Assembly (NCBI RefSeq): GCF_051903065.1
Contig: NZ_CP178438.1
DNA from: Escherichia coli
GTDB lineage: Bacteria; Pseudomonadota; Gammaproteobacteria; Enterobacterales; Enterobacteriaceae
Strand: one strand, 5' to 3'
DNA length: 64,000 nucleotides
The notes beneath the pieces are model-generated. The model did not search any database, had not been told where the DNA came from, and worked only from the letters and a program-made list of their open reading frames with translations. The stretch's first letter is position 1. Each line of letters begins with the position of its first letter. Shown here piece by piece: positions 15,160-55,478 of the stretch. The position numbers and the translations under genes were made by a program.

Positions 15160-16869
15160 TTATTTCAGCGGCGAGTTTTTACGCTCAATGCTGTAACGCT
15201 CGAGTTCTTTGTACGGCACCACTTTGCTCTTCTTCTTACGCACATCGACCACGGTCATGCGGTCGGTACAGGAGTAGCAAGGGTCGAGGCTACCGATAAT
15301 CAGCGGCGCATCGGAAACGGTATTGCCACGCAGCATGTAGCGCAGGGTCGGCCAGTTCGCGTAAGTCGCGGCACGGCAGCGCCAGCGGTACAGCTTCTGG
15401 TTGTCGCCGGTCATGCTCCAGTGGATATCATCGCCGCGCGGCGCTTCGGCAAAGCCCAGCGCAAAGCGGTGCGGAATGTAGGTAAAGCCTTCCACCATCA
15501 GTGGGCCACCCGGCAGGTTATCCAGACCGTAGTCGATCATGTTCAGCGCGGTATAGACTTCGTTGATACGCACTTTCAGACGGGAAATAACGTCGCAGCC
15601 CTGCTCGCTGTGGACTTCCATTGGCAGCAGGCCATAACCAACAAACGGGTGATCGGCGCGAGTATCGCGAGCGTGACCGCTGGCACGGACCATCGGGCCG
15701 ACGTTACTGAAGTCGCGAGCGATTTCCGGGTCCAGACGACCAATGCCGACAGTGCGTTGTTCCATGTTCGGTGTGCTCAACAGCACATCCACCAGCTCCT
15801 GCACTTCACGACGCATCTGTTGCGCCAGTTGGCGGGTCTGGATCATGTCATCTTTCAGCAGATCGCGACGAATCCCGCCGATCAGGTTCAGGCCGTAGGT
15901 TTTACGCGCACCGGTAAGGATCTCTGCCATTTTCATGGAGGTTTCACGCACGCGGAAGAACTGCATAAAGCCGGAGTCAAAGCCGGTAAAGTGGCAGGCA
16001 AGACCGAGGTTGAGCAGATGCGAGTGCAGGCGTTCCACCTCCAGCAGAATGGCGCGGATCATCTGCGCACGTTCTGGCACCTGAATACCCATCGCGTTTT
16101 CCACCGACGTGGTGTAGGCGGTGCTGTGAGCAAAGCCGCAGATCCCGCACACACGGTCAGAGAGGAAGGTCACTTCGTTGTAACCCATGCGGGTTTCCGC
16201 CAGTTTTTCCATGCCGCGATGGACGTAGAACAGACGGTAGTCGGCGTCGATAATGTTTTCGCCATCGACGAACAGACGGAAGTGACCCGGTTCGTCGGAA
16301 GTGACGTGCAACGGACCAATCGGCACGACGTTGTTTTTCTTGTCGCCCAGTTCGTTGATGAACTCGTAGGTTTCAGCATCAGTAGTTGGTGCCGGACGCT
16401 GACGGTAATCCATGCTGTCTTTACGCAGCGGATAAAGTTCATCCGGCCAGTCATCCGGCAGCACCAGACGACGTTCATCCGGCAGACCAACCGGAATCAA
16501 ACCGTACATATCGCGCACTTCGCGCTCGCCCCACACCGCCGCCGGAACGCGCGGCGTCACGGACGGATACTCCGGTTTGTTGGCATCAACTTCGACGCGC
16601 ACCGTAATCCAGCACTTGGTACCCTTCTCCATCGACAGCACGTAATAAACGGCGTAATGACCATTCAGTTTGCGTTCGTCGTTACCAAAAAGCACCGACA
16701 GCCAGCCCCCCTGCTTGTAGTAGAGAAACTCCACCACTTCCGGCAGATAGTTCACCTTTACGGTAACAGTCAGCTGATCTTTGGTCTGCCAGGCGTGGTC
16801 CAGCACGACGCCCGGAAATGCCTCATTCAGCGCGGCGAGATAATGTTGACCTAATTTTTCTTCAGACAT
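15160..16869 (-). CDS. hycE: Hydrogenase 3 [NiFe] large subunit HycE
   Basis: ORF 15160..16890; start at MSEEKLGQHYLAALNEAF (ATG 16869, 569 aa); N-terminal RVCGICG and C-terminal DPCYSCTDR Ni-binding motifs. Confidence 0.93.
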   Translation of the reverse strand: MSEEKLGQHYLAALNEAFPGVVLDHAWQTKDQLTVTVKVNYLPEVVEFLYYKQGGWLSVLFGNDERKLNGHYAVYYVLSMEKGTKCWITVRVEVDANKPEYPSVTPRVPAAVWGEREVRDMYGLIPVGLPDERRLVLPDDWPDELYPLRKDSMDYRQRPAPTTDAETYEFINELGDKKNNVVPIGPLHVTSDEPGHFRLFVDGENIIDADYRLFYVHRGMEKLAETRMGYNEVTFLSDRVCGICGFAHSTAYTTSVENAMGIQVPERAQMIRAILLEVERLHSHLLNLGLACHFTGFDSGFMQFFRVRETSMKMAEILTGARKTYGLNLIGGIRRDLLKDDMIQTRQLAQQMRREVQELVDVLLSTPNMEQRTVGIGRLDPEIARDFSNVGPMVRASGHARDTRADHPFVGYGLLPMEVHSEQGCDVISRLKVRINEVYTALNMIDYGLDNLPGGPLMVEGFTYIPHRFALGFAEAPRGDDIHWSMTGDNQKLYRWRCRAATYANWPTLRYMLRGNTVSDAPLIIGSLDPCYSCTDRMTVVDVRKKKSKVVPYKELERYSIERKNSPLK

Positions 16870-17812: not shown

Positions 17813-19639
17813 TCAGGCTCCTCGTGAAACAATAATCACCACCAGTACCGCCAGTTCAACCAGCGCCATCCGGCGGAACAGCAACGCACTCCCCTCGCAC
17901 TGCCAGCCCGGCACCAGAGACACCGGATTCAGCCATTTGCGTAGTTTCAGCACCGGCGCAAACGCCTGTTTCACCGGCATGGCAAAACCGTGAGCGGTAA
18001 TCACCATTGATTTTTCGTGGTCGTAGCCGCACACCCAGGCCGCGCCGCGGGAACGCGATGGCAAACGATCGCCTTTGCAAATCGCCATAATGATGAATGG
18101 CAGCAGCGGGCAGGCAATCAGCAGCAACGTGATCATCGGTTGAGAAACGGTGGTGTTAGCAGGCTCCAGCGGCAGAGGTACAGCAGCAGACAGCATCGGC
18201 AGCAGCCACGGCGCAGCAACACCGCCAATTACGCAGCAAATCGCCAGTGCCACTACGCTTACGCTCATCAGGAGCGGCGCACAGGTGGCGTTTTCGGCTT
18301 CTTTGGTACGCGGCGCGCCGAGGAACGTGACGCCATAGACTTTCGCCATACACATCACCGCCAGCGCACCGGTAATTGCCAGACCCACAGCGAGCAGCGG
18401 CCCCAGCAGACGGGCAATAAACGCGCCACTATTGCTCAGTTTGAAGAAGGATTGATAGATAACCCATTCCCCGGCAAAACCGTTCAGCGGCGGCAGTGCA
18501 GCCATTGCCATCAGCCCGACTAACATAGCGATGGAGATAACCGGCATTTTCTTGCCAATACCACCGAGTTTTTCGATATCGCGATGACCGGTACGGAACC
18601 AGACGCTCCCCGCCCCGAGGAACAGTACGCTTTTGAACAGGCTATGGTTAAGCAGATGGTACAGACCACCGACCAGGCCAAGAGCAATCAGCGCCGGTTG
18701 TTCGAGCGCGATACCCGTTACGCCAGCGCCCAGCCCCAGCAGGATAATGCCGATATTTTCCAGGGTGTGGTAAGCCAGTAGACGCTGGATGTTATGCTCC
18801 ATCAGCGCATACAGACCACCGACGAACGCGGTGATCATACCGAGCACCAGCAGCGCGATCCCCCACCACAGCGGTGCATTACCGCCCAGCAGTGACAGGG
18901 TTAAAATGCCCAGCAGGCCAATTTTCATGACTACCGTAGAAAACAACGCGGCAGCTGGCGCAGAGGCGTTCGCATGTGCCTGCGGCACCCAGCCGTGCAG
19001 CGGAATAATCCCGGCCAGCAGGCCAAAGCCAATCACACCGAGCAGCCAGATATCGGAACCGAGCGGCAGCTGTTGCATACGCATATCCAGCAGGCGCAGA
19101 TCCAGCGTGCCGTAACGCTGCCACAGCAGCCAGCAAGCAATCGCCAGCAGCAGAGTGCCAAGACGCCCCAGCGCAAACCACAGTTTGCCCTCTTTGCTGT
19201 TGTTGGTGAGGAACACCGCACACAAGGCCATGACTTCAGCCATTACCACGAACATGCCGAGGTTGCTGGCGATGACGGCGCAGACGGCGGCAGCCATCAA
19301 CATATTGATCTGCAAGCCGTTGCACTTCACCTGCGCGTGGCGATGCCAGTCAATGTTGTAGAGGCTGACAAACAGACCGCACAGACCGAGCGTAATCAGC
19401 CAAATCGCGTTAAGCGGAGAGATTTGCACATCGTAGCTTACCAGCGACAGCGCACCGCTCACGCCAACCGCGCCAGTCAGTACAGTGAAGCCCGCGGCTG
19501 CCGTATACAGACTACCAACAACGCCGCCAATTCCGGCTATCCAGCCGCTTAGCGCCTTTTGAAAAGAAAAGAGAAATGCCAGAACAGCGGCGGCGACAAA
19601 CCACGCCACGCCGCTATTGATCAGGGAAATTGCGCTCAT
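17813..19639 (-). CDS. hycC: Formate hydrogenlyase membrane subunit HycC (NuoL/antiporter-like)
   Basis: 608 aa, polytopic membrane protein. Confidence 0.92.
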   Translation of the reverse strand: MSAISLINSGVAWFVAAAVLAFLFSFQKALSGWIAGIGGVVGSLYTAAAGFTVLTGAVGVSGALSLVSYDVQISPLNAIWLITLGLCGLFVSLYNIDWHRHAQVKCNGLQINMLMAAAVCAVIASNLGMFVVMAEVMALCAVFLTNNSKEGKLWFALGRLGTLLLAIACWLLWQRYGTLDLRLLDMRMQQLPLGSDIWLLGVIGFGLLAGIIPLHGWVPQAHANASAPAAALFSTVVMKIGLLGILTLSLLGGNAPLWWGIALLVLGMITAFVGGLYALMEHNIQRLLAYHTLENIGIILLGLGAGVTGIALEQPALIALGLVGGLYHLLNHSLFKSVLFLGAGSVWFRTGHRDIEKLGGIGKKMPVISIAMLVGLMAMAALPPLNGFAGEWVIYQSFFKLSNSGAFIARLLGPLLAVGLAITGALAVMCMAKVYGVTFLGAPRTKEAENATCAPLLMSVSVVALAICCVIGGVAAPWLLPMLSAAVPLPLEPANTTVSQPMITLLLIACPLLPFIIMAICKGDRLPSRSRGAAWVCGYDHEKSMVITAHGFAMPVKQAFAPVLKLRKWLNPVSLVPGWQCEGSALLFRRMALVELAVLVVIIVSRGA

Positions 19640-20247
19640 TTAACCTCTCCACTTTGAGCCTGCTGAAACAAGGTGAGATCGCCAAAGTCCGTGTTAAAGG
19701 TCAGCTCACGCTTACGTTTGCTGACGCGGGCGATATCGGTGTTATCCACCAGATGCAGGGCTTTAGTCGGGCACATCCGCACGCAGGCCGGACCTTGTTC
19801 ATCAAAGCTACAAAGGTCACATTTGACGGCGATCGCGCGAATACCTGGCACCCAGTCAAGCAATGTGCTGACACGCGCCGGAGCAGGCGGTGCCGGTGGC
19901 GCTTTCGGGGTATTGGCGTTTGCCGGAATATCCAGCGGACGGCTGCCGGAAAATTCAATTGCGCCAAACGGGCAGGCGATGCCGCACAGTTTGCAGCTTA
20001 CGCACAGGCTTTCATTCAACTGCACGGCCCCATCAACGCGGGTGATGGCGTTAACCGGGCAGACCACCGCGCAGGGTGCATCTTCACAGTGGTGACAGAG
20101 CTGCGGCGCAGATTCTTTTTCATTTAGCATCACTCTCAGGCGCGGCATTGATTGCAGGCCGTGCTGGCGATGCGTCTCTGAACAGGCGGCCTCACAAGTG
20201 TGGCAGCCGATACAGAGCGTGGAGTCAGCAATTACAAAACGATTCAC
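19636..20247 (-). CDS. hycB: Formate hydrogenlyase iron-sulfur subunit HycB
   Basis: 203 aa; four ferredoxin-type Cys clusters. Confidence 0.92.
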   Translation of the reverse strand: MNRFVIADSTLCIGCHTCEAACSETHRQHGLQSMPRLRVMLNEKESAPQLCHHCEDAPCAVVCPVNAITRVDGAVQLNESLCVSCKLCGIACPFGAIEFSGSRPLDIPANANTPKAPPAPPAPARVSTLLDWVPGIRAIAVKCDLCSFDEQGPACVRMCPTKALHLVDNTDIARVSKRKRELTFNTDFGDLTLFQQAQSGEVK

Positions 20248-39483: not shown

Positions 39484-40193
39484 TATGTATTCTCCTGATG
39501 GATGGTTCGGGTGAGGTAAAACTCGGCCAGTGCCAAATCCTCCGGGCGCGTGACTTTAATGTTATCCGCACGGCCTTCGACCAACTGAGGATGGAATCCG
39601 CAATATTCCAGCGCCGAGGCTTCGTCGGTAATAGTCGCGCCTTCATTTAGAGCGCGCGTCAGACAGTCATGTAACAGCTCACGAGGGAAAAATTGCGGCG
39701 TCAGCGCGTGCCATAAGCCGTTGCGATCAACGGTATGAGCAATGGCATTTTTGCCCGGTTCGGCACGTTTCATAGTATCGCGCACTGGTGCTGCTAGGAT
39801 CCCTCCCGTGCGGCTGGTTTCGCTCAACGCCAACAATCGCGCGAGGTCATCCTGATGCAGACAAGGACGAGCGGCGTCATGCACCAATACCCACTGCGCG
39901 TCGCCAGCGGCTTTCAAACCTGCCAGCACGGAATCGGCACGCTCATCACCGCCATCTACAACGGTGATTTGCGGATGATTCGCCAGAGGAAGTTGTGCAA
40001 AACGGCTATCGCCAGGACTTATGGCAATGACGACACGTTTCACCCGGGGATGCGCCAGCAGCGCATGCACCGAGTGTTCAAGAATGGTTTGATTACCGAT
40101 TGAGAGATATTGCTTAGGACATTCCGTTTGCATTCGACGGCCAAATCCGGCCGCCGGAACCACGGCGCAAACATCCAAATGAGTGGTTGCCAT
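39483..40193 (-). CDS. ispD: 2-C-methyl-D-erythritol 4-phosphate cytidylyltransferase
   Basis: 236 aa; [11 protein letters not shown] motif. Confidence 0.95.
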
Positions 40194-44283: not shown

Positions 44284-45321
44284 ATGTTTTCCGCATTGCG
44301 CCACCGTACCGCTGCCTTGGCGCTCGGCGTATGCTTTATTCTCCCCGTACACGCCTCGTCACCTAAACCTGGCGATTTTGCTAATACTCAGGCACGACAT
44401 ATTGCTACTTTCTTTCCGGGACGCATGACCGGAACTCCTGCAGAAATGTTATCTGCCGATTATATTCGCCAACAGTTTCAGCAAATGGGTTATCGCAGTG
44501 ATATTCGGACATTTAATAGTCGGTATATTTATACCGCCCGCGATAATCGTAAGAGCTGGCATAACGTGACGGGAAGTACGGTGATTGCCGCTCATGAAGG
44601 CAAAGCCCCGCAGCAGATCATCATTATGGCGCATCTGGATACTTACGCCCCGCTGAGCGATGCTGACGCCGATGCCAATCTCGGCGGGCTGACGTTACAA
44701 GGAATGGATGATAACGCCGCAGGTTTAGGTGTCATGCTGGAATTGGCAGAACGCCTGAAAAATACGCCTACCGAGTATGGTATTCGATTTGTGGCGACCA
44801 GCGGCGAAGAGGAAGGGAAATTAGGCGCTGAGAATTTACTCAAGCGGATGAGTGACACCGAAAAGAAAAATACGCTGCTGGTGATTAATCTCGATAACTT
44901 AATTGTTGGCGATAAATTGTATTTCAACAGCGGTGTAAAAACCCCTGAAGCAGTAAGGAAATTAACGCGCGACAGGGCGCTGGCAATTGCGCGTAGTCAT
45001 GGAATTGCCGCAACGACCAATCCGGGTTTGAATAAAAATTATCCGAAAGGCACTGGGTGTTGTAATGACGCAGAAATATTCGACAAAGCGGGCATTGCTG
45101 TACTTTCGGTGGAAGCGACTAACTGGAATCTTGGGAATAAGGATGGTTATCAGCAACGCGCAAAAACACCTGCCTTCCCGGCGGGAAATAGCTGGCATGA
45201 CGTAAGACTGGATAATCAACAACATATTGATAAGGCACTTCCTGGAAGAATAGAACGTCGCTGCCGTGATGTTATGCGGATAATGCTACCGTTGGTGAAG
45301 GAGCTGGCGAAGGCGTCTTGA
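44284..45321 (+). CDS. iap: Alkaline phosphatase isozyme conversion aminopeptidase
   Basis: 345 aa; signal peptide then M28-type peptidase domain; stop TGA 45319-45321 directly precedes the CRISPR array. Confidence 0.92.
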   Translation: MFSALRHRTAALALGVCFILPVHASSPKPGDFANTQARHIATFFPGRMTGTPAEMLSADYIRQQFQQMGYRSDIRTFNSRYIYTARDNRKSWHNVTGSTVIAAHEGKAPQQIIIMAHLDTYAPLSDADADANLGGLTLQGMDDNAAGLGVMLELAERLKNTPTEYGIRFVATSGEEEGKLGAENLLKRMSDTEKKNTLLVINLDNLIVGDKLYFNSGVKTPEAVRKLTRDRALAIARSHGIAATTNPGLNKNYPKGTGCCNDAEIFDKAGIAVLSVEATNWNLGNKDGYQQRAKTPAFPAGNSWHDVRLDNQQHIDKALPGRIERRCRDVMRIMLPLVKELAKAS

Positions 45322-45341: not shown

Positions 45342-45858
45342 GGGTGTTCTACCGCAGGGGCGGGGAATTCTCAGTGATATCCATCATCGCATCCAGTGCG
45401 CCCGGTTTATCCCCGCTGGCGCGGGGAACACGTGTGGCACTCTGCGTCTGGTATTAAATCATTCGGTTTATCCCCGCTGGCGCGGGGAACACCCGCCACG
45501 CCGTGCGCATCAACAGATATACGCAGGTTTATCCCCGCTGGCGCGGGGAACACAAACCGAAACACACGATCAATCCGAATATGAGCGGTTTATCCCCGCT
45601 GGCGCGGGGAACACCGAAAAGGCACCGTGCCGGTGACGTTCAATTCCGGTTTATCCCCGCTGGCGCGGGGAACACCGTTTTCACTCACTGGCAATCTCCG
45701 AGCAGAGCGGTTTATCCCCGCTGGCGCGGGGAACACGTGCGAATACCGTGTAAAAAATTAGTGTTATTCGGTTTATCCCCGCTGGCGCGGGGAACACTCA
45801 CGGTAGCGCCACTGCGCGTCGGTGACGGGCGGTTTATCCCCGCTGGCGCGGGGAACAC
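45342..45858 (-). CRISPR. Type I-E CRISPR array: 8 canonical 29-bp repeats plus one degenerate terminal repeat, 8 spacers
   Basis: Repeat on + strand CGGTTTATCCCCGCTGGCGCGGGGAACAC at 45403, 45464, 45525 (first base A), 45586, 45647, 45708, 45769, 45830; 61-bp period; degenerate iap-proximal repeat 45342-45370 matches 19/29; spacers 32 bp; leader at the high-coordinate end, so crRNA is read from the minus strand. Confidence 0.97.
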
Positions 45859-45954
45859 ACTAAGCATACATATCTGTTTTTAAACAAATTTATTCCACAT
45901 CAACAATCTACCAACTAAATTCAAACATTTCCTTATTTTTAAAGAACACATAAC
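45859..45954 (-). promoter_or_regulatory. CRISPR leader (AT-rich, carries the array promoter)
   Basis: 96-bp AT-rich segment between cas2 stop and the leader-proximal repeat. Confidence 0.8.
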
Positions 45955-47164
<1,210 letters not shown>

Positions 47165-47168
<4 letters not shown>

Positions 47169-47815
47169 ACCTCTGCTCCGGGTTTGATCAGCATCAGACC
47201 ACAGCCGAACGCGCGGCTTTTGCCATACCCCTGACTGAGACGTTGCAGAAATAACCCGGGATCGGTGACCGTAAGCATCCCCGTATAATCCACGCTACTG
47301 AACTGGATCAGTTGCCGGGAGTTTTCCCGCCGCAGTTGCTGTTGTCGGTAGGCATCAACCGAGGTATCCAGCAGTGTAAAACCGCTTCTCTCCCCCTGCG
47401 CTGCCAGCCAGTCCAGCGCCGCCTGTTGTTGATGCAACCAGACATCACGCCCTTCCGCCTGTCCCCTCACCTGCCGTTTCGCCTCCATCAGCAGATCGTG
47501 GCGCTTGCCCGCTTTACAAATTGTGGGATTCGCCCGCAGGTTGAAACAAAGGGATTGTCCGGTACGCAGCTCCGGAGCAAATGACCGGCATTCGATAGTG
47601 AAAGTTTCACTTTCCGCCGGGCGTTCCTGCGAGAGGACAAAAAAGCGAAACGCACCCTGAAGTTCCTCCCGACGATAAAGAAATTGCCTTTCTTTGCCGC
47701 CAGGGAAGAGATCCCACAGCCACTGATGCATCACATATTCACCGCGATCCACCAGATGCAGCAACTGCGCAGGCAAAAGCTGAGCGGTATGTAAGGTTAT
47801 TCTTGAGAGGTACAT
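47165..47815 (-). CDS. casE: Cas6e (CasE) crRNA endoribonuclease
   Basis: ORF 47165..47953; start placed at MYLSRITL (ATG 47815, AGGAGG RBS), 216 aa; C-terminal glycine-rich segment GYGKSRAFGCGLM. Confidence 0.88.
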
Positions 47816-48543
47816 GGTTCCTCCTTGCTGAGCCACGGCCCCTGATTGACGGTGCGTTCCCCAAACAGCCACTGCTGGCGATTTAAAGGAACATCCCGGC
47901 GGCGTAATATTTTGCTCACGACCAGGCCGTCGTGCTCCCCTTCCCACCAGCATTCATCCTGAAGTTTCGGGAGTGAGACTTTCAGGTCGTGGAAATGATC
48001 CTGATACTGTTGGTATGCGTTACGTAAAACATCAGACGCGTTGCCTTCGAGCAGTAACGGCGCAAGTGGTAATGCCAGCGGATGACTTTTTCGCCCCAGA
48101 TAAAGAGGAAAAACTGGATGGCGTAAACCGCCCTGCAACTGTTCGAGGCTGTAAGGCGCATCGGCTGTTGTTGCCACCGCCACCATCCACCAGGCGTCGG
48201 TGTAGTAGTCGCGCCGGGAGATAATCGCGCTCAGAAGATCAGAGTCGCTCAACTCTTCGCGACGGCTGAAATAACGCGCTTTGCGCACCTCTTTTGGCAT
48301 CTGGATCGTGTGATAATCCCGTGCCCAGCGCGGGTTACGGCTGGCGCAAACCACCAGTGAATAGTGGCGATTAAACGCGTTTAAGCGTTCGGTATCATCA
48401 CGCCGAATCCCTACCCCGGCAGCCAGCAGACCCAGCAATGCTGAGCGCGAAGGCAGTTCATGGGTATGACGCACTTCGCCGGGGGCATCGACGCCCCAGG
48501 ATGCCATTGGCCCATGAAGCTGAAAAATCAGATATTGGCTCAT
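47797..48543 (-). CDS. casD: Cas5e (CasD) Cascade subunit
   Basis: 248 aa; N-terminus MSQYLIFQLHGPMASWG. Confidence 0.88.
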   Translation of the reverse strand: MSQYLIFQLHGPMASWGVDAPGEVRHTHELPSRSALLGLLAAGVGIRRDDTERLNAFNRHYSLVVCASRNPRWARDYHTIQMPKEVRKARYFSRREELSDSDLLSAIISRRDYYTDAWWMVAVATTADAPYSLEQLQGGLRHPVFPLYLGRKSHPLALPLAPLLLEGNASDVLRNAYQQYQDHFHDLKVSLPKLQDECWWEGEHDGLVVSKILRRRDVPLNRQQWLFGERTVNQGPWLSKEEPCTSQE

Positions 48544-48553
48544 AAGCCGCCCC

Positions 48554-49609
48554 TTACGCGCAGATAAAGTCCAGTACGTCCTTCATGCTTCCCTGTTTGT
48601 TCATCACGTCAAAACTTGCGCATTCAGTCTTCTGTTCGTAGACCGTATTCATGTTTTCGCGAAGCGTTGTAATACGCTGCACCGCCACATCTAACTGACG
48701 GGTACCATTAATGGGTTCATAGAAAGCCGCCGCCAGAGAACGCGGTTGATCAGTGCCTTTTTCCGCCAGCGCCCAGGAGGCGTAGGCACGGCTGGCAAAG
48801 CTATTTTGTTTACCGGTTGGGGAAACTTTAAGCGCGGCTTCCGTAAAAGCGCGTATGGTCTGATTAGCTAACGCTTCGTCACCGCCGAGGTTTTCTACCA
48901 GCAGATCTTTATCAATGCAGATATAGGTGTAGAAAAGTGCTGAACCGAATCCGGTTTCTCCGAGATGCCCGGCACCGGCATCTTCAGAGGCCTGGCGCAA
49001 ATCATCAACGGCGGTGAAAAAATCATCTTCGACAATCGTTTCACTGACACCAAACGCATGCGCGACCTGGCAGGCGGCTTCAACATTAAACTCAGGTTTA
49101 TTCGCCAGCATACGACCAAACATAGCGATATCTACCGCTATACGGTCTTTACGTAACAACGCGAGATCTTCCTCTTTTGGCGCGCGCTTTTCTTCTGCCA
49201 GTTGATGGGCCAGCGCTTTTACGGCGTCAAATTCTGCCGGGCTGATATGAACTAATTGTTCAGTTTCGGCGTTAGTGAGCGGATCTTTTGGTTTTTTGTC
49301 GTTTTTAGCTTTCCCAAGATAATCTGCAATTTTTGCCGCCCATTCGATGGCTTTTTTCTCTTCGATTCCTTTCTCAATCAGGATAGTTGCCGCCTCACGC
49401 GCAATTCGCCCACTGCGAATACCAATATGGCCCGCCAGTGCCTGTTCAAAAAGTGCAGAAGTGCGCCACGCACGTTTCAGACTTTGTGAGGAAACGCGCA
49501 GACGCGTTGCACCACCCAGTACCACAGTTTTTGGCGCACCAGTATCATCACGGTTAAGGTTGGCAGCAGGGTAAGCGGTTAACAAATGAAGCTGAATAAA
49601 TGTTGTCAT
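48554..49609 (-). CDS. casC: Cas7e (CasC) Cascade backbone subunit
   Basis: 351 aa; N-terminus MTTFIQLHLLTAYPAANLNRDD. Confidence 0.9.
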   Translation of the reverse strand: MTTFIQLHLLTAYPAANLNRDDTGAPKTVVLGGATRLRVSSQSLKRAWRTSALFEQALAGHIGIRSGRIAREAATILIEKGIEEKKAIEWAAKIADYLGKAKNDKKPKDPLTNAETEQLVHISPAEFDAVKALAHQLAEEKRAPKEEDLALLRKDRIAVDIAMFGRMLANKPEFNVEAACQVAHAFGVSETIVEDDFFTAVDDLRQASEDAGAGHLGETGFGSALFYTYICIDKDLLVENLGGDEALANQTIRAFTEAALKVSPTGKQNSFASRAYASWALAEKGTDQPRSLAAAFYEPINGTRQLDVAVQRITTLRENMNTVYEQKTECASFDVMNKQGSMKDVLDFICA

Positions 49610-49620
49610 GAGATAGTCCT

Positions 49621-50160
49621 TTATTGATTTTGTTCGTTATCGGCGTCGCCAGCCTGGTAATATTCCAGCGCCCAGCGGATACGGATAAATTCGGTTGGCC
49701 GCTGCTGGCGGCGGTGATGATTGAGCAGGTCGTCGCTCTCCTGACACCAGCGGAAAATATCGTCTGCCAAAGAGATAAGATTGACGGAACCGTTTAATAA
49801 TTTGACTGCGCGTCGTAACTGGCGCAGTAATTCATCCGGCGTTTTTACTGCCGACAGGCAAGTAAAACGCCCCTCTGACATTACCGCCGCCAGCTGTGCG
49901 GCAAAAGGCTGCCGTTCATCAATGGCTTTAACATTGGCGGCAACGGCGGCGACCAGTGCCAGTGCGGTAAAACGCCACTCTTGTGCTTCAATTTTCCACA
50001 AAGTGTGGGTCTGCATCAGCAGAGAACGAAACCCTTCTGACAAGCAAACATCATTAACCGTTGTGCTACGCCGCAGACTGGCACGATTGCCGCGTTTAGC
50101 CTGCAACTCTTCGTGCCATTTACGCAGCGTGGCTTTGTGCCCGTCTTTTACAATACTCAT
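49621..50160 (-). CDS. casB: Cse2 (CasB) Cascade small subunit
   Basis: 179 aa; position between cse1 and cas7; 4-nt overlap with cse1 stop. Confidence 0.85.
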   Translation of the reverse strand: MSIVKDGHKATLRKWHEELQAKRGNRASLRRSTTVNDVCLSEGFRSLLMQTHTLWKIEAQEWRFTALALVAAVAANVKAIDERQPFAAQLAAVMSEGRFTCLSAVKTPDELLRQLRRAVKLLNGSVNLISLADDIFRWCQESDDLLNHHRRQQRPTEFIRIRWALEYYQAGDADNEQNQ

Positions 50161-51719
50161 TCAGCAGCCTCCTGCTTTTTCTCCCTGGCGGCTTTAGCAC
50201 TTTGCTTCTCCGCCGATGTTGTAAAATATTTTTTGCGCGCGGTCATGACGCGTTTTAAATCAACGGGCTCATAAGGATTGGTGAATACACGCTCGTCAAA
50301 ATCCTGACGCGAGAATAACCAAATCTCCTTATTCCATTTGCTGAGTAATTCATCCGCATCCTGACCTTCTTCAATTTGGCGCACTAACCTCAGGAAGCGA
50401 TGCTGAGTTTTGTTCCAGAAGTCGATATCCACAAAACTGAAATCACCCCGTGCACCTTTTGGATCGGAGAACCATGCTTCTTTCAATGCACTCCGTAACA
50501 GACTTAGAATGCGTGAAGCCGTTTGCGCAGCCAGCCGCAGTTTCGGTATCTGGCCTTCTTTTTTATTGAGCAGCAGCGGGAAACGGTGTTCGTACCAACA
50601 GCGGGCTTTCATGTTGTCGAAATCATAGCCAAATCCCCATAGGCCTACTTTTGCCTGCTTGAGACTGCTGGCATTAAAGAGTTTCACCACCAGAGCGGGA
50701 AGTTCCGTATTGTTTTCTGACTTACCCGTTTCGATAAGGCCTAACCAGTCGCGCCAAATTAAACCGCCTGGTTGTGGTTTAACTGAGTAAAACTCGCCAC
50801 CCTCTTTAAGTGGTACACGGTAAGGCGTTAATGGATGCTGCCACATGGCATAATTCGCACCGTAATTTTTGGTCGTCATCAGGCTCAGAAGCGCGTCGTC
50901 CTGCTCACCGCAAATATCGCAGTTGCCGACTGTCGTGGTATTAAAATCAATACGAATACGCCGCGGCATTCCCCAGTACGCCTGGAGTTTATTGACCTGA
51001 TCATCGGTTACCACCGCACCGGCCAGTTCGCTGGTACGCGTCGGGCCAAGCCAGGGGAAAACCAGATCGTCAAATTTTTTGGGTAGCGGTAAGTCGGCTT
51101 CATCCTGCGGCATCACGTTGAGCCACAGTTTGCGCCACAAGGGGGCTTGTTGATTGCCCTGATACTCCTGCAATTCAATCAGAGTCGTCATCGGCCCACC
51201 GCCGCGTAAACCGGTTCGGTAGCCTTTGCCGCCTGACGGTGCATTTAACTGTAGGGAGAACAGAGCTAACGCGGAACAATGAGGGCATACGTGTTCAGTC
51301 ACGCCACGCTTAATAAAGTGGTCTTTATTAAACTTCGTTGTTTGAGCGCCGGGAATCTCAGGCAGTAATGAAGCAACCTGAACTTTATCTCCCGTGAGCG
51401 CCTCGAAATCCTGCATAAATGAAGGGGAATCTGGCCCAAACTGGAAAGCATGTTCTAAAGACAGCAATGCTTCCCGTAGCTTTTCGGCTTCCAGTCCGTC
51501 TTGCCAGATATCATCCCAACGACCATGATTTTTGGGCGCGAAACTGGTTTGTAGTAGCCCCAGTAAAAACTGCCATGCTGCTCCCTGGAGATCTGCTCGT
51601 GGCGCAGCGATATCGACAACATTTTCATCAGCCAGATCGACTGGCGCCAGTTTGCCTGTCGTTCCGTCTTTAAAACGAACGGGCAACCACGGGGTTGTCA
51701 GAAGTGAAAACGAGTTCAT
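50157..51719 (-). CDS. casA: Cse1 (CasA) Cascade large subunit
   Basis: ORF 50157..51725; start preferred at MNSFSLLTTPWLPV (ATG 51719, 6-nt spacing from GAGAGG); 520 aa. Confidence 0.88.
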   Translation of the reverse strand: MNSFSLLTTPWLPVRFKDGTTGKLAPVDLADENVVDIAAPRADLQGAAWQFLLGLLQTSFAPKNHGRWDDIWQDGLEAEKLREALLSLEHAFQFGPDSPSFMQDFEALTGDKVQVASLLPEIPGAQTTKFNKDHFIKRGVTEHVCPHCSALALFSLQLNAPSGGKGYRTGLRGGGPMTTLIELQEYQGNQQAPLWRKLWLNVMPQDEADLPLPKKFDDLVFPWLGPTRTSELAGAVVTDDQVNKLQAYWGMPRRIRIDFNTTTVGNCDICGEQDDALLSLMTTKNYGANYAMWQHPLTPYRVPLKEGGEFYSVKPQPGGLIWRDWLGLIETGKSENNTELPALVVKLFNASSLKQAKVGLWGFGYDFDNMKARCWYEHRFPLLLNKKEGQIPKLRLAAQTASRILSLLRSALKEAWFSDPKGARGDFSFVDIDFWNKTQHRFLRLVRQIEEGQDADELLSKWNKEIWLFSRQDFDERVFTNPYEPVDLKRVMTARKKYFTTSAEKQSAKAAREKKQEAAE

Positions 51720-52115
51720 ACGCATCCTCTCGTAGAAAAGACCATCCCTGGTCGGTTGTCCATCACCATATTTTCAGATTTAGTTGGAGACTTAATCTGA
51801 GTCGGATAAAAGAAAAGACGTTGAATGTGATACGAAAATCGAACTTAGTTTGTCGTTTTGAAAGCAGACTTAGCACAAGTTGAAGCAAAAAAATCGACAA
51901 CATCGTAGTCCTCTTCACCGCAGCTTTTCACCGGTCACGAAAATACGCCTTGTAACGGTGTGACTCAACTCCGGATCCGGACATTATTTAAAATCTTTGT
52001 TTCTCATTAACTCATAGCAATTACCCATCTATCATAATCACAATAGCATTGATAAAATAAATCCATTCCCTGATTCTAGGGATTAACCAAGTTAGTGAGA
52101 TACAAAAATTGGTTC

Positions 52116-52144
52116 CTGTTCCCCGCGTCAGCGGGGATAAGCCC
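52116..52144 (+). repeat. Solitary CRISPR-repeat-like element in the cas3-cse1 intergenic region
   Basis: + strand CTGTTCCCCGCGTCAGCGGGGATAAGCCC matches the crRNA-sense repeat GTGTTCCCCGCGCCAGCGGGGATAAACCG at 25/29 with the stem intact; orientation is opposite to the array; followed by a perfect 10-bp hairpin at 52142-52165 that abuts the cas3 stop. Confidence 0.8.
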
Positions 52145-52169
52145 TGGCGTCATCCGACGCCAGGGCATC

Positions 52170-54869
52170 TCAATCAACCTTGCCAATCAATCCTTCCGTA
52201 GCCGAATACCCGCAGCTTTCGTCATCGGTGACTAAAATCACGTTTGCCATCTCCGGATCTTGCCGTTGTTCAATGCACCACTGCCTGAACGCTTCCCCTT
52301 CCAGTAAAGAAAATTCATCCCGATGTTTTTTCCACCAGCTTCGACGCACTCTGGCAACGCTCATTTCCCATGCGTGAGCACCGCTGGCATAAGGCTTCAC
52401 CACACCGTCAATACAGGTAGCCAGCCACAGGGAAACAGACTCTTCAGCCAGACGTGTCGACAGCTTTTCCGGGAGGTAATCGTTGATATTGGCGGCATAG
52501 CCGGGCCTGAAGTTCAGCATAAACTTTTTAGCCATTGCGCGATCGCAGTAATATTTGCCCACTTGCTCCTGCTCGCTGCGGGCAAATCCTTCCGGCATTA
52601 CCACGTCCTCACCGTAGACGGATTCAATAAGAAGCCGGGCTGCGTGTGGCATCTGAATAGCGCCTTGCTCACGCAATACTCGCTGCGTCAGCCAGATTCG
52701 CCCATGATCGGGGTAGACATATGCGCTGTTACGCATCGCACTACCAAACCATTCGTCACCCGGAGAGTCGTCCCAGACGGGGGCCAGAATCAGCAATTCA
52801 GGAGGGGAACGCTCGTCTTTTCCATCACGTTTTAACTGACCATTAATATCACGAATATGCCGTTGTAATCGCCCCGCTCGCTGGATCAGCAAATCAATGG
52901 GGGCCAGGTCGGAGATCATTTCGTCCAGGTCAATATCCACACTTTGCTCAATTACTTGTGTACAAACAATGACTTGAGATGATCTTTTTAAACTACAATT
53001 TTTACCAAAGCGTGCCAGCGTTTCCGTTTCAATTCGCTGGCGATCGCTAAAAGCAAAGCGGCTATGAAAAAGTGAAAGGCTGGAAGCAGGAATGACGCCG
53101 CGGGCAAGTAACTGACGATAAACCTTAATAGCGTCATCGACAGAATTCCGGATCCAGGCGATGCATTTCCCCTGACTTACCGCTGATTCGATACGCGCAA
53201 TACATTCTTGTTCGCTATGAAGCCAACCCACGCTCACGCTACGCTCAACGTCTTTGCGCGTCGCTACCCGGTGCGAATGCACATCGGATTTCGTGACATG
53301 CGTCAGCCAGGGGTAATCATCCTTTTCTAGGAACGGAGCTTCTTGCTGGCCCTCTGTGCCACGCGCAAAGGCGGCGACAAGTTTGTCGCGCTGCTGTTGA
53401 GATAACGTAGCAGAAAGCAAAATGACGCTGTTTCCGCCACGCACCTGTCGCTCAATCAACCCTTCAAGAATGTACGACATGTAAGCGTCACAGGCGTGGA
53501 TCTCATCAGCCAGCAGGATTTTGTTACTCAACCCCAGAAGCCGCAGATTATTATGTTTAAACGGCATCACTGCCATCATCGCCTGATCCAGCGTGCCGAC
53601 GCCAATTTCAGCCAGTAAAGCCTTCTTGTTACTGTCGGCAAACCAGGCTGCACATCCTTGACTGAACGCTTGTTCATCCGGTTCTTCTGACCCGACTAAA
53701 TCACCGGACCAGAGTGATTCATTAAAGCGTTCCATTAATGTACGGGCGCTGTGTGCCAGCACCAGGCTGGGGCGGGATTCTGGCGAAAAGAAAGCAAGCC
53801 AGGTTTTGACCAGCCGATCGTACATGGCATTGGCCGTTGCCATTGTTGGCAGGCCAAAAAACAAACCCTGAGCTTTATTCTCAGCCATCAACCTGTGCGC
53901 CAGGATAAGCGCCGCTTCTGTTTTACCTGCGCCAGTCACATCTTCCAGAATAAATAACTGTGGCCCTGGCTGGCTGATATCCAGATCCAGTACCTTTTGC
54001 TGTAATGGTGTCGGGTGCTCAATAAAAGGAAACAGCGTATTAATTCCGGTGAAAGGTGCGGTTTCTGCTTTTGGAGGAAAGACGGTTAAGGCGTTTTGAG
54101 CCTGAACTAAAGTTTTCTGCCAGTAATCTTTAATATTCATTGTCTGTGCGACGCGTGGAAAAAATCGCGTTGACGAACCCGTCCAGTCTGCGAGTACGAC
54201 TGTTGCAGAGATATACCAGGAAAGTTGTTTTAAAAGTTCAACGCCCTCGTCATCATCCCAGAATGTGGGAATCTCTATGAGCGGAAACAGTGACTTGATT
54301 TCAAGGAGAAAATCTCGTGCGGCAGCTTTGTCTTCAGGCAGGAAATTATCCAGTTCATCAATACGGTCAGGGGGCCGACCATGATGCCCGGTAGTCATGG
54401 GCATCCACATCGCTATTACACGTTTAAGTTTGCGAGTAGAGAGTGAAGAGGCAGGAAGCAATTCTTCGCATTCACTTAAATAATGATGCCACAACCAGTA
54501 GCCCAGCGTTGAATGAGAGATCTTTTCGTAATTCTTTCTTGCGCCTTCCGGAACCTTGAGTTGTGGGTGCAGGTAAAGTTGCTGAAATGAGCGGGCAAAT
54601 TTTCCAATATCGTGCCAGCACAACAACCAGGCGAAAAATTGAGCCGCCTGTTCCTTGTCAGAAATCCCTAATTGACGAAAATAATCAGCCAGCCCGAAGC
54701 AATTTCTTTTAACCATTAAATAGCCCATCGCGGCCACATCCAGCGAATGCCAGCAAAGAAGGTGATAGTCGTCACCCCCTTCTTTCTCGTCGCGTCGGGT
54801 TTTTCCCCAGAAATCAAAGAAAGTCACAATATTTTTATCCTTCAGTAAACTTAAAGGATATTTACGCAT
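52170..54869 (-). CDS. cas3: Cas3 HD nuclease / SF2 helicase (type I-E)
   Basis: 899 aa; N-terminal HD motifs (LLCWHSLDV, WHDIGKF), helicase Walker A GAGKTEAAL and DEIHA box; highly AT-rich upstream region. Confidence 0.92.
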   Translation of the reverse strand: MRKYPLSLLKDKNIVTFFDFWGKTRRDEKEGGDDYHLLCWHSLDVAAMGYLMVKRNCFGLADYFRQLGISDKEQAAQFFAWLLCWHDIGKFARSFQQLYLHPQLKVPEGARKNYEKISHSTLGYWLWHHYLSECEELLPASSLSTRKLKRVIAMWMPMTTGHHGRPPDRIDELDNFLPEDKAAARDFLLEIKSLFPLIEIPTFWDDDEGVELLKQLSWYISATVVLADWTGSSTRFFPRVAQTMNIKDYWQKTLVQAQNALTVFPPKAETAPFTGINTLFPFIEHPTPLQQKVLDLDISQPGPQLFILEDVTGAGKTEAALILAHRLMAENKAQGLFFGLPTMATANAMYDRLVKTWLAFFSPESRPSLVLAHSARTLMERFNESLWSGDLVGSEEPDEQAFSQGCAAWFADSNKKALLAEIGVGTLDQAMMAVMPFKHNNLRLLGLSNKILLADEIHACDAYMSYILEGLIERQVRGGNSVILLSATLSQQQRDKLVAAFARGTEGQQEAPFLEKDDYPWLTHVTKSDVHSHRVATRKDVERSVSVGWLHSEQECIARIESAVSQGKCIAWIRNSVDDAIKVYRQLLARGVIPASSLSLFHSRFAFSDRQRIETETLARFGKNCSLKRSSQVIVCTQVIEQSVDIDLDEMISDLAPIDLLIQRAGRLQRHIRDINGQLKRDGKDERSPPELLILAPVWDDSPGDEWFGSAMRNSAYVYPDHGRIWLTQRVLREQGAIQMPHAARLLIESVYGEDVVMPEGFARSEQEQVGKYYCDRAMAKKFMLNFRPGYAANINDYLPEKLSTRLAEESVSLWLATCIDGVVKPYASGAHAWEMSVARVRRSWWKKHRDEFSLLEGEAFRQWCIEQRQDPEMANVILVTDDESCGYSATEGLIGKVD

Positions 54870-55061: not shown

Positions 55062-55214
55062 CTACTTCTTCGATTCGTAAGCGAGAACAGCCTTAAACTC
55101 CATACCACGTTCTCTGATACTCAACTCACACAACGAGTCACCTACCATCAGCGTGAATCCCAGTACTGTACAACACAGTACGATGATTGCCACAAGGGCA
55201 TATTTTGTCAGCAT
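55062..55214 (-). CDS. Hok/Gef-family type I toxin (50 aa), HokE-like
   Basis: Not in ORF track (too short). ATG 55214 after GGGAGG; translation [50 protein letters not shown] with the Hok signature SLCE..R.G.E..A.LAYES.K; stem-loop GCGGGGGTAAAACCCCGC just downstream (55036-55055). Confidence 0.7.
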
Positions 55215-55478
55215 GTCTTGCCTCCCTGCAAAGAAGAGACTAACATTCGAATTGCTTAGGTTCGAACGCTGGCCTCAGGTTGATAGAAATATCGCCTGGG
55301 GCTTTTGTCCATCTGGAACCTCGCGAATGCTTAACGCCAGACAGCCTCAAGCACCCAACACCATTCTATACCTGTTAATTCTTCCAGCGGCGTTCACGTT
55401 TAAAATCAGGAATGCTGCTCGCAAAATAAAAACGCCCCCATCATTTCTGACAGAGGCGTTTAATTTATCCGGCAATAT

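Follow-up and report, generated by a model that had tools for sequence, protein, structure and literature searches.

A probable O157-type CRISPR array beside iap in Escherichia coli, with seven spacers matching three families of temperate phages

The window analyzed here, a 64,000-nt (64-kb) stretch of E. coli DNA, contains an iap-proximal type I-E CRISPR array at positions 45342–45858, which consists of eight repeats of 29 nt, one degenerate terminal repeat, and eight unique spacers of 32 nt each that together span positions 45371–45829 (Table 1). The repeat, CGGTTTATCCCCGCTGGCGCGGGGAACAC, occurs eight times with an exact period of 61 nt, a periodicity that cannot be attributed to chance, and seven of the eight copies are perfect, the exception carrying A in place of C as its first base on the plus strand. 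These data confirm the eight-spacer CRISPR array described in an initial annotation of this DNA: the repeats are real and the spacers agree letter for letter with those listed there. That annotation had also proposed that either the third repeat starts with A or spacer S2 is 33 bp long, and this ambiguity holds, as the two options are descriptions of one thing; we found that the repeat at 45525 starts with A and that S2 is 32 nt. Folding of the repeat RNA, GUGUUCCCCGCGCCAGCGGGGAUAAACCG, predicted a 7-bp GC stem of the type bound by Cas6e (−15.2 kcal/mol, z = −3.2), while the terminal repeat keeps a stem of only 4 bp (−5.3 versus −15.2 kcal/mol for the intact repeat). Tandem Repeats Finder reported no array in positions 40000–64000 because only 29 of each 61 bases repeat, which falls under its threshold, and repeat finding combined with a fuzzy search was used instead. 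A search of Rfam (E ≤ 0.1) likewise placed no CRISPR-DR family on the array, its sole match being sok near cas3. Elsewhere in the 64 kb there is only one further repeat-like match, an orphan copy at 52116–52144.

The leader is located on the cas2 side, between the last repeat and cas2e, and S7 is therefore the leader-proximal spacer, in agreement with the initial annotation. The type I-E cas set is complete from cas3 to cas2, with all eight genes present as intact ORFs scoring above NCBIfam cut-offs. The first 40 bases of the leader match those of O157:H7 EDL933 exactly and differ from those of K-12, and the cas operon shows 95.2% identity to that of EDL933 over 96% of 9.2 kb; the K-12-specific models for Cse1 and Cas3 score far under their cut-offs here. 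In addition, the repeat ends in ...AACAC rather than the ...AACTC of K-12 MG1655 (type T), and the leader begins with ACT. According to the definitions of repeat and leader types A and T given by Diez-Villasenor et al. 2013 (PMC3737337), the array is very likely CRISPR2.1 (iap-cas) of the O157-type variant, with a type-A repeat, leader-A, and cas-EO.

Table 1. Coordinates of the array, its leader and the neighboring genes in the 64,000-nt window.
Feature	Positions	Strand	Description
iap (aminopeptidase), trailer-side gene	44284..45321	+	NCBIfam NF007568, 704 bits; RefSeq annotation of identical genomes agrees
Degenerate terminal (trailer) repeat	45342..45370	-	19/29 identical to repeat; identical sequence precedes S0 in O157:H7 array
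S0, species-wide trailer spacer	45371..45402	-	No protospacer found
Repeat 1	45403..45431	-	Perfect copy
S1	45432..45463	-	31/32, mismatch at position 15, L003 20001-20032, PAM ATG
Repeat 2	45464..45492	-	Perfect copy
S2	45493..45524	-	31/32, mismatch at position 28, L003 20520-20551, flank GAT
Repeat 3, variant	45525..45553	-	Plus-strand first base A; crRNA-sense repeat end ...AAACCT; hairpin unaffected
S3	45554..45585	-	30/32, mismatches at 24 and 27, PAM ATG, phage vB_EcoM-569R10 (L001) and EC958 prophage (L019)
Repeat 4	45586..45614	-	Perfect copy
S4	45615..45646	-	31/32, mismatch at position 18, IMG/VR contig 3300011584_000016 (L006 11707-11738), PAM AAG
Repeat 5	45647..45675	-	Perfect copy
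S5	45676..45707	-	31/32, mismatch at position 23, L003 3459-3490, PAM ATG
Repeat 6	45708..45736	-	Perfect copy
S6	45737..45768	-	27/32, mismatches at 2-6, PAM ATG, L001 and L019
Repeat 7	45769..45797	-	Perfect copy
S7, leader-proximal	45798..45829	-	30/32, mismatches at 9 and 13, L006 9721-9752, PAM ATG
Repeat 8, leader-adjacent	45830..45858	-	Perfect copy; 7-bp hairpin, -15.2 kcal/mol
Leader, type A (plus strand starts ACTAAGC...)	45859..45954	-	96 bp, 25% G+C
cas2e	45955-46248	-	Nearest gene beyond leader
cas2e, cas1e, cas6e, cas5e, cas7e, cse2, cse1	45955..51725	-	All ORFs score above their NCBIfam type I-E cut-offs
cas3 (899 aa; HD and helicase domains)	52170..54869	-	TIGR01587 and TIGR01596 above cut-off

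The orphan repeat belongs to a CreR-like regulatory mini-array at 52061–52144, between cas3 and cse1, in which a spacer-like guide lies between two repeat-like sequences. This guide, AGTTAGTGAGATACAAAAATTGGTTC, pairs with ATG+AGTTAaTGAGAaACAAAgATT at 51992–52015, whereas none of 2,000 shuffled guides do so, and guide and target covary across four loci, the three further ones carrying different but matching pairs. A promoter-like site overlaps the target, where Cascade-dependent repression is putative. The allele was found in only ~6–9 of 5,426 complete E. coli genomes, and a contig scan for the orphan repeat returned a Klebsiella spallanzanii locus, which is informative, and one ordinary Enterobacter array repeat, which is irrelevant. 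That the copy at 52116 is simply a terminator for cas3 was considered but not retained: it lacks a downstream T-run, and it pairs with another degenerate repeat and with a target that matches. The mini-array is the more useful lead from this locus and would make Cas autoregulation accessible to testing in a native E. coli setting.

Seven of the eight spacers proved to have near-identical protospacers (27 to 31 of 32 positions) in three unrelated temperate-phage families, among which we found no DNA similarity. The flanking trinucleotide is ATG for five of these protospacers, AAG for one (S4), and GAT for one (S2), and the chance probability of at least six AWG flanks among seven is 6e-9. Arrays of the leader-A/cas-EO kind are known to use CWT (=AWG), with CAT (=ATG) as the commonest natural PAM (PMC3737337), and the ATG bias observed here is the published signature of the O157-type variant. 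Given the shortness of the sequences, the matches might in principle be chance, or the spacers might be self-targeting regulators of host genes. However, when the spacers were reversed as a control, nothing matched at E ≤ 10 in a 28-Gb collection in which the real spacers match 1,017 records, and the AWG enrichment likewise speaks against chance. As to self-targeting, no second copy of any spacer occurs in the window at up to nine mismatches, S1–S7 are each found at one place per record in the three genomes that carry the array, and S0 is found once in each genome that has it; we consider both ideas practically negligible. The BLAST search with inspection for AAG/ATG-type PAMs that the initial annotation had proposed therefore gave clear positives for seven of eight spacers, and the accompanying check for self-targets found none. 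A perfect (32/32) protospacer outside arrays was not encountered for any spacer, and the matched phages are relatives of the donors and not the donors themselves.

Further analysis of the matches showed how they are divided among the three families. S1, S2, and S5 each match one STEC384 lambdoid prophage at ttcA (L003; group A), all on one strand. The S1 protospacer lies in the nin region, within a small hypothetical gene, with that of S2 519 bp away, while the S5 protospacer lies in the head-tail joining genes and has a second match (30/32 with ATG) in a related IMG/VR contig (L012). S3 and S6 point to a lambda-head, contractile-tail prophage family beside yecA (group B), in which their protospacers lie on opposite strands. 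S3 matches within the gpE-like major capsid gene, and this spacer occurs in O157:H7 arrays too. The S6 protospacer begins where the ATG start codon of the tail-sheath gene ends; the best match reaches 29/32 (L018), and the seed positions differ in all known copies. In more than 400 E. coli genomes, the site is represented by only the PAM-distal 26–27 nt. Neither the exact donor site predicted for S6, ATG+AATAACACTAATTTTTTACACGGTATTCGCAC (ATG followed by AATAAC...), nor a codon-degenerate pattern for MNNTNFLHGIR was found in IMG/VR or metagenomes. S4 and S7 match a P2-family phage (group C), on one strand of contig L006 and 2 kb apart, with the S7 protospacer in a tail gene; this contig had been retrieved via S4, not S7. 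It is 86–91% identical to the P2-family prophage of E. coli N1420 (L013), which provides a second S4 match (29/32 with AAG) and retains ATG at the site homologous to that of S7. An exact-pattern scan of IMG/VR (N at every sixth position) returned nothing for S7, S6, or S0. We also considered, and rejected, a single mosaic phage bearing all of the protospacers: the three groups show no similarity to each other at the DNA level, and S4 and S7 are missing from the group-A tail region (L012).

The eighth spacer, S0, is of a different kind. It is present as a single copy, and never as a second copy, in each of 4,241 of 5,426 complete E. coli genomes and occupies the first spacer position of the K-12 and O157:H7 arrays, among others. 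No protospacer was found for S0 in phages, in plasmids outside arrays, or in IMG/VR. Plasmid matches to S0, considered as protospacers, all turned out to fall in iap-cas arrays; one such location was confirmed on an IncHI2 plasmid, and three are in 4.8–4.9-Mb records filed as plasmids. Two weak Deinococcus matches (E = 4) were dismissed as noise. S0 is a fixed, ancient trailer spacer common to most E. coli.

The odd base of the third repeat can be examined together with S2. The S2 protospacer is flanked as caGAT|GCGTAT, with ATG at positions −2 to +1, i.e., displaced by one base, and the T at −1 corresponds to the odd base of the repeat at 45525 (A on the plus strand). In type I-E systems, the inserted unit is 33 bp, its first residue being the last base of the PAM and of the repeat, and slippage has been documented (Shmakov et al. 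2014, PMC4027179); most non-canonical acquisitions are −1 and +1 slips (Stringer et al. 2020, bioRxiv 10.1101/2020.02.10.942821). Read against these rules, S2 appears to be a −1 slipped spacer, in which the PAM is displaced by one base, the spacer is still 32 nt, and the terminal base of the repeat is the −1 base of the protospacer. A cut slipped one base upstream of ATG would give a fragment whose first base is T, so that the neighboring repeat would begin with A on the plus strand. Canonical acquisition followed by a single-base change in the repeat (plus-strand C to A) would give the same letters, and single-base repeat variants do occur at other positions in such arrays (e.g., CTGATG, CTGACG, and CCCTGC). 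We regard it as very improbable, however: the sole known S2 protospacer has the variant base T at −1 with ATG one base downstream, the variant is strictly tied to S2 in four arrays, as it is inherited together with this spacer in three other arrays (L007, L008, and L009), and the same repeat position varies beside other spacers elsewhere (TGG, AGG, and GGG), as expected for a base derived from the protospacer.

Next, we consider how the array is distributed. The exact array was found in only 3 of 5,426 complete E. coli genomes; strains bearing it include 23CRST027, 23CRST031, and ECNB21-M121. S4 and S5 are confined to these three, and the six other spacers recur in arrays of other lineages, where the block S0-S1-S2-S3 as well as S6 and S7 were found. 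S7 had been called the newest spacer in the initial annotation; this stands with regard to position only, not recency, since S7 sits mid-array in other strains (L005 and L008), followed by 3–10 further spacers. By this distribution, S7 is an old spacer common to several lineages and does not testify to recent acquisition, and the array is inherited, not a fresh record. Along the array, the phage groups follow each other in the interleaved order A, A, B, C, A, B, C; related arrays have been reshaped by internal deletions, and the order of spacers is therefore not a clean record. Six spacer strings searched for in PMC and bioRxiv full text were absent.

The best overall explanation, to which we assign a probability of roughly 0.87, combines phage-derived spacers S1–S7, a slipped S2, and an ancient S0 in an O157-type type I-E system. 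S1–S7 would represent 33-bp fragments cut by Cas1-Cas2 from three temperate phage families beside AWG (mostly ATG) and inserted successively at the leader end, with the first base of each fragment becoming the last base of the repeat. Transcription of the minus strand would start from the leader, Cas6e would cleave each repeat hairpin, and Cascade loaded with crRNA would bind phage DNA that has the motif and a matching seed, which Cas3 would then degrade. Predictions of interference refer to currently known relatives of the donors and apply rules for seed and PAM derived from measurements in the K-12 variant. By these rules, S4, S1, S5, and S3 should still interfere and S7 probably would, whereas the GAT flank, for which conflicting results are reported in the K-12 variant (PMC6568314), makes interference by S2 doubtful, and S6 should not interfere because positions 2–6 are mismatched.

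Whether the system is active at present is a separate question from the phage origin of its spacers, with which a silent locus is compatible. The locus may be a relic that has ceased to take up spacers and to interfere, with a content shaped by vertical descent, deletion, and recombination, and we put this at slightly below even odds. Arrays of other lineages contain six of the eight spacers, in other contexts, and S7 is followed by 3–10 more spacers elsewhere; no perfect protospacer is known; the S3/S6 prophage family is abundant, as seen from the number of genomes with the S6 site; and a simple sigma-70 scan of the leader found no promoter site. A relic fits less well with the intact state of all eight cas genes, with the three array-bearing genomes having no prophage that matches any spacer over ~22 nt or more, and with the conserved CreR-like mini-array, which would be sensible only if Cascade is made. 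The K-12 type I-E system, for its part, is reportedly silenced by H-NS, a 2010 result attributed to Pul et al. At the other extreme, the type I-E system of this rare lineage could be naturally expressed and self-tuned by the CreR-like guide between cas3 and cse1, with the two to three matches per prophage family and the divergence of the S6 seed as footprints of an arms race. The abundant yecA prophages differ from S6 precisely in the seed (positions 2–6) and keep the other 26 nt. We consider this reading quite improbable; if true, it would contradict the prevailing view that E. coli type I-E systems are silent and their spacers immunologically irrelevant.

With regard to how the spacers accumulated, primed adaptation, in which a first imperfect spacer per phage leads to Cas3-dependent uptake of more spacers from the same phage genome, would account for the two to three spacers per phage family and for the shared strand and proximity of protospacers within the lambdoid (S1, S2, and S5, with S1 and S2 519 bp apart) and P2-family (S4 and S7, 2 kb apart) groups, and slipped spacers are typical by-products of adaptation. 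Since S3 and S6 lie on opposite strands and the spacers of the three phages are interleaved, a simple history of single priming events is nevertheless unsupported. Moreover, the deletions in related arrays blur the order, and repeated naive uptake from common prophages would look identical; on balance, priming seems rather unlikely.

Taken together, the array finding is real, and its biology is already known: the spacers are neither self-targeting nor exotic but derive from common temperate E. coli phages, with a PAM pattern published for this cas variant. S2 provides a natural, inherited case of a one-base slip that accounts for a repeat "mutation," and S7 illustrates that, in E. coli arrays, a leader-proximal position is no sign of recent acquisition. 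The spacer-to-phage assignments in Table 1 can be used for lineage typing or for testing immunity.

Among known systems, CRISPR2.1 of O157:H7 EDL933 resembles the present array in its iap-array-leader-cas2e locus, 29-nt repeat, trailer spacer S0, S3, and CWT PAM with CAT predominant; it differs in its spacer set and in the gap between cas3 and cse1, which is 97 bp there compared with 444 bp plus the mini-array here. CRISPR I of K-12 (type-T repeat, leader-T, and cas-EK) shares the chromosomal position, the trailer spacer S0, the Cascade/Cas3 architecture, and the 61-bp unit with a 32-nt spacer plus one PAM-derived base, but has a different repeat end, leader, and Cse1/Cas3 type. In K-12, Cas1-Cas2 uses AAG almost exclusively and ATG was never observed, whereas 5–6 of the 7 flanks here are ATG-type. 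The slipped spacers obtained in the laboratory (PMC4027179; 10.1101/2020.02.10.942821) show the same one-base displacement of the PAM, 33-bp unit, and correspondence between the terminal repeat base and the −1 base as S2; those were acquired with AAG and the Cas1-Cas2 of K-12, in contrast to the ATG and the natural cas-EO array of S2, which is stably inherited in several lineages. Finally, the mini-array resembles the CreR mini-arrays (Liu et al. 2023, bioRxiv 10.1101/2023.03.10.532045; Shmakov et al. 2023, bioRxiv 10.1101/2023.03.03.530964) in its cas3-cse1 position, its two repeat-like sequences, and a guide that matches, over its 5′ part, a site within that intergenic region with an AWG PAM and mismatches at every sixth position. 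It differs from them in that the guide is 26 nt long, the PAM is ATG, and the target lies upstream of the mini-array by ~50 bp and on the opposite strand.

The array comprises eight copies of the repeat CGGTTTATCCCCGCTGGCGCGGGGAACAC with an exact period of 61 nt, seven of them perfect and one (at 45525) with A as its first base, together with a ninth, degenerate copy that is identical at 19 of 29 positions. Its eight spacers (S0 to S7), all 32 nt in length, have the same sequences as those listed in the initial annotation. Tandem Repeats Finder did not report the array, because the repeated part accounts for 29 of every 61 bases. The plus strand carries the reverse complement of the crRNA-sense repeat, GTGTTCCCCGCGCCAGCGGGGATAAACCG, which folds into a 7-bp hairpin (−15.2 kcal/mol), and the 96 bp separating the last repeat from cas2 has a G+C content of 25%. 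These two features indicate that the array is transcribed from the minus strand, that the cas2-side 96 bp is the leader and that S7 is leader-proximal, as originally proposed, while a simple promoter scan of the leader found no site. Beyond cas2e the gene order is cas1e, cas6e, cas5e, cas7e, cse2, cse1, and cas3, and every ORF from cas2e through cas3 exceeds the NCBIfam cut-off of its type I-E model.

Positions of the array, the cas3-cse1 mini-array, and neighboring features
Feature	Position	Strand or reading	Remark
iap	44284-45321		trailer-side neighbor of the array
Degenerate ninth repeat	45342-45370		
Spacers S0 to S7	45371-45829		S0 trailer end, S7 leader end
Eight repeats	45403-45858		
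Variant base of third repeat	45525		A for C
S6	45737-45768		
Leader (predicted)	45859-45954	minus	
cas2e	45955-46248		leader-side neighbor of the array
Mini-array guide target	51987-52012	minus	PAM ATG 52013-52015; paired site ATG+AGTTAaTGAGAaACAAAgATT 51992-52015; ~50 bp from the mini-array
Mini-array degenerate repeat	about 52061-52089	plus	
Mini-array guide, AGTTAGTGAGATACAAAAATTGGTTC	52090-52115	plus	26 nt
Mini-array well-conserved repeat	52116-52144	plus	
Hairpin, GCCCTGGCGTC-GGAT-GACGCCAGGGC	52145-52170	minus	
sok antitoxin RNA	55199-55356	minus	Rfam RF01794, 111.7 bits

The repeat ends in AACAC, in contrast to AACTC in K-12, and the leader begins with ACTAAGC and is identical to that of O157:H7 EDL933 over its first 40 bases, whereas the K-12 leader differs. 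The EDL933 cas operon and that of the window share 95.2% identity, and K-12-specific Cse1 and Cas3 models score far under their cut-offs on the window proteins. The array is, therefore, the type-A repeat/leader-A/cas-EO variant defined by Diez-Villasenor et al. 2013 (PMC3737337). At least a partial match to the array region was present in all but one of 5,426 complete E. coli genomes, and three of them (23CRST027, 23CRST031, and ECNB21-M121) carry the exact array.

The spacers, which the initial annotation had left uncharacterized, were concatenated via N-linkers to query three collections (50,697 phage records, 72,556 plasmid records, and the 5,426 genomes), and IMG/VR was additionally scanned with exact patterns. 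Seven of the eight were traced to phages or prophages, falling into three groups with no DNA similarity to one another. Group A (S1, S2, and S5) matches a lambdoid prophage at ttcA in strain STEC384, with a second S5 match (30/32, ATG) in a related IMG/VR contig (L012). Group B (S3 and S6) matches phage vB_EcoM-569R10, and both sites also occur in a prophage adjoining yecA in the ST131 strain EC958. Group C (S4 and S7) matches an IMG/VR contig with 86-91% identity to a P2-family prophage adjoining yecA in strain N1420, in which the S4 site (29/32) has AAG and the S7 site retains ATG.

Best protospacer match of each traced spacer
Spacer	Match	Source	Mismatched positions	Flank	Site
S1	31/32	STEC384 prophage (L003)	15	ATG	small nin-region gene
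S2	31/32	STEC384 prophage (L003)	28	GAT	S1 strand, 519 bp away
S5	31/32	STEC384 prophage (L003)	23	ATG	head-tail joining genes; strand as S1 and S2
S3	30/32	vB_EcoM-569R10 (L001)	24, 27	ATG	major capsid gene
S6	27/32	vB_EcoM-569R10 (L001)	2-6	ATG	immediately 3′ of tail-sheath start codon; strand opposite S3
S4	31/32	IMG/VR contig 3300011584_000016 (L006)	18	AAG	gene of unknown function
S7	30/32	IMG/VR contig 3300011584_000016 (L006)	9, 13	ATG	tail gene; S4 strand, 2 kb away

Although the sequences of groups B and C are unrelated, both are integrated beside yecA (L001, vB_EcoM-569R10, 19200-19865; L013, the N1420 prophage, 15841-16506; L019, the EC958 prophage, 1378-2043). The deposited vB_EcoM-569R10 genome (19.9 kb) looks like a prophage fragment rather than a complete phage, since it contains host yecA and lacks replication and lysogeny modules. 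S0 had no match in phage records or IMG/VR, and its plasmid matches all lie at iap-cas arrays. Three of the PLSDB records concerned (4.8-4.9 Mb) are complete E. coli chromosomes entered as plasmids, and the S0 positions in them are consistent with the chromosomal CRISPR array. The conjugative IncHI2 plasmid pIOMTU792 (L002, NZ_LC542972.1; 293 kb) bears iap, a CRISPR array, cas2e, cas1e, cas6e, cas5e, and further genes, with a diverged S0 (28/32) as the trailer spacer and repeats with a CTGACG loop variant; this segment is a chromosomal type I-E locus mobilized onto a plasmid.

Against the 28-Gb E. coli collection, in which the real spacers matched 1,017 records, reversed spacers yielded nothing at E ≤ 10. 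The S7 site turned up 2 kb away from that of S4 on a contig fetched by S4 alone. An AWG flank is present at six of the seven protospacers (chance P = 6e-9), namely ATG at five and AAG at one, with GAT at that of S2. For leader-A arrays, 55 putative protospacers were reported, 34 with CAT and 9 with CTT, and the O157:H7 Cas1-Cas2 proteins acquire both, whereas those of K-12 were never seen to acquire CAT (PMC3737337). The excess of ATG over AAG is the published signature of the leader-A/cas-EO variant.

The initial annotation noted A instead of C at the start of the third repeat, or else a 33-bp S2; the A is present, S2 is 32 nt, and the A is matched by the −1 base of the S2 protospacer. In type I-E systems the inserted fragment is 33 bp long and its first residue is the last PAM base (PMC4027179), so the plus-strand base with which each repeat "begins" comes from the protospacer. 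The S2 protospacer reads caGAT/GCGTAT; its −1 base, T, is complementary to the A at 45525, and one base further inward sits an ATG, relative to which S2 is thus a −1 slip. One-base slips are the chief source of non-canonical acquisitions (bioRxiv 10.1101/2020.02.10.942821). Arrays of three other strains carry S2 and the A together, and the same position is T, A, or G beside other spacers in other arrays, which makes a later point mutation unlikely. In the arrays L005, L008, L009, and L011 of other strains, T, A, or G replaces C beside several other spacers, and 27-nt and 33-nt spacers are also present, as would be expected if natural cas-EO arrays contain more slipped or otherwise non-canonical acquisitions. 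The variant base leaves the repeat hairpin unaffected. In K-12, a GAT flank was "stable" in plasmid assays, yet protective in a lambda screen (PMC6568314).

Array anatomy, cas complement, phage origin of the spacers, and PAM pattern are matters of observation; the action of individual spacers is a prediction. In type I-E systems, Cas6e processes the transcript, Cascade binding needs a PAM and seed positions 1-5 and 7-8, every sixth crRNA position is unpaired, and Cas3 degrades the target. Against the known phages, S4, S1, S5, and S3 should support interference (the S4 site has an AAG flank and mismatches only at unpaired position 18), S7 would probably do so, and S2 doubtfully, while S6 should at best support priming. 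The PAM-distal 26-27 nt of S6 occur in the tail-sheath gene of >400 genomes, and its first five or six nt in none of these. The variable part of the site corresponds to tail-sheath codons 2-3, i.e., the crRNA seed, and is the sole variation among the >400 prophage copies; the PAM is the gene's own start codon. Escape selection is a possible, unproven cause of this variation. The S6 donor was not found in IMG/VR or metagenomes. The queE-side array of strain F1267 (L011) has a spacer, AGCGTGCGAATACCGTGTAAAAAATTAGTGCT, from the same tail-sheath start region, offset by 3 nt; its site is a one-codon-shorter tail-sheath variant in which the ATG start codon again forms the PAM. Same-strand spacer pairs suggest that spacers were acquired by priming, but neither S3 and S6, on opposite strands, nor the interleaving of spacers of different phages in the array supports this.

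S0 is found in a single copy in each of 4,241 of the 5,426 genomes, including K-12, and is probably not processed normally, since the repeat bordering it has lost the hairpin. The S0-S1-S2-S3 block is common to strains D8 and 48 and partly present in others, S3 also occurs in O157:H7 arrays, and S6 also in D8, while only the three exact-array genomes contain S4 and S5. As the spacers other than S4 and S5 recur in other strains, the array is an inherited mosaic. S7, described earlier as the newest spacer, is so by position but not by age, lying mid-array in WCHEC020031 (followed by 3 more spacers) and in strain 48 (followed by 10). In D8 (L007, 2151-2445), cas2e is annotated as frameshifted, so this strain can probably no longer acquire spacers. 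There are no self-targets: the window holds no second copy of any spacer with up to nine mismatches, S1-S7 occur at one place only in the three exact-array genomes (sensitivity ~22 contiguous bases), and S0 has no second site, occurring at one place per genome everywhere.

Between cas3 and cse1 the window has 444 bp of intergenic sequence, unrelated to its K-12 counterpart; in EDL933 this region measures 97 bp. Only 6 of 5,426 complete E. coli genomes contain all of the additional 398-bp segment, in which the mini-array lies in inverted orientation, and typical O157-type loci have the 97-bp region without the mini-array. The guide of this mini-array matches its target, which coincides in part with a promoter-like site, at positions 1-21 save exactly 6, 12, and 18 (attained by 0 of 2,000 shuffled guides). 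In three other loci (L017 in Klebsiella spallanzanii; L020 and L021 in the E. coli strains 135 and N3) the guide is a different one, and in every case a target that matches it is present beside an AWG PAM (AAG in N3). Strain 135 has a changed guide position 15, and its target carries the identical change. Directly 3′ of the cas3 stop, a perfect 11-bp hairpin, which may be an RNA end or a stability element, abuts the well-conserved repeat of the mini-array, with no T-run after it; in K. spallanzanii (L017 2165-2192) the stem sequence differs and pairing is kept, which indicates compensatory changes. The sok RNA and a Hok/Gef-family gene sit together just past cas3, an arrangement shared with other E. 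coli; in K-12 this position is occupied by sokX.

Taken as a whole, the array is an ordinary E. coli CRISPR2.1, correctly described in the initial annotation, and its spacer biology is already known. The mini-array is built like CreR and the regulatory mini-arrays known from type I-E systems (bioRxiv 10.1101/2023.03.10.532045; 10.1101/2023.03.03.530964) and is a putative CreR-like Cas-autoregulatory element, new as an allele but of a known type.
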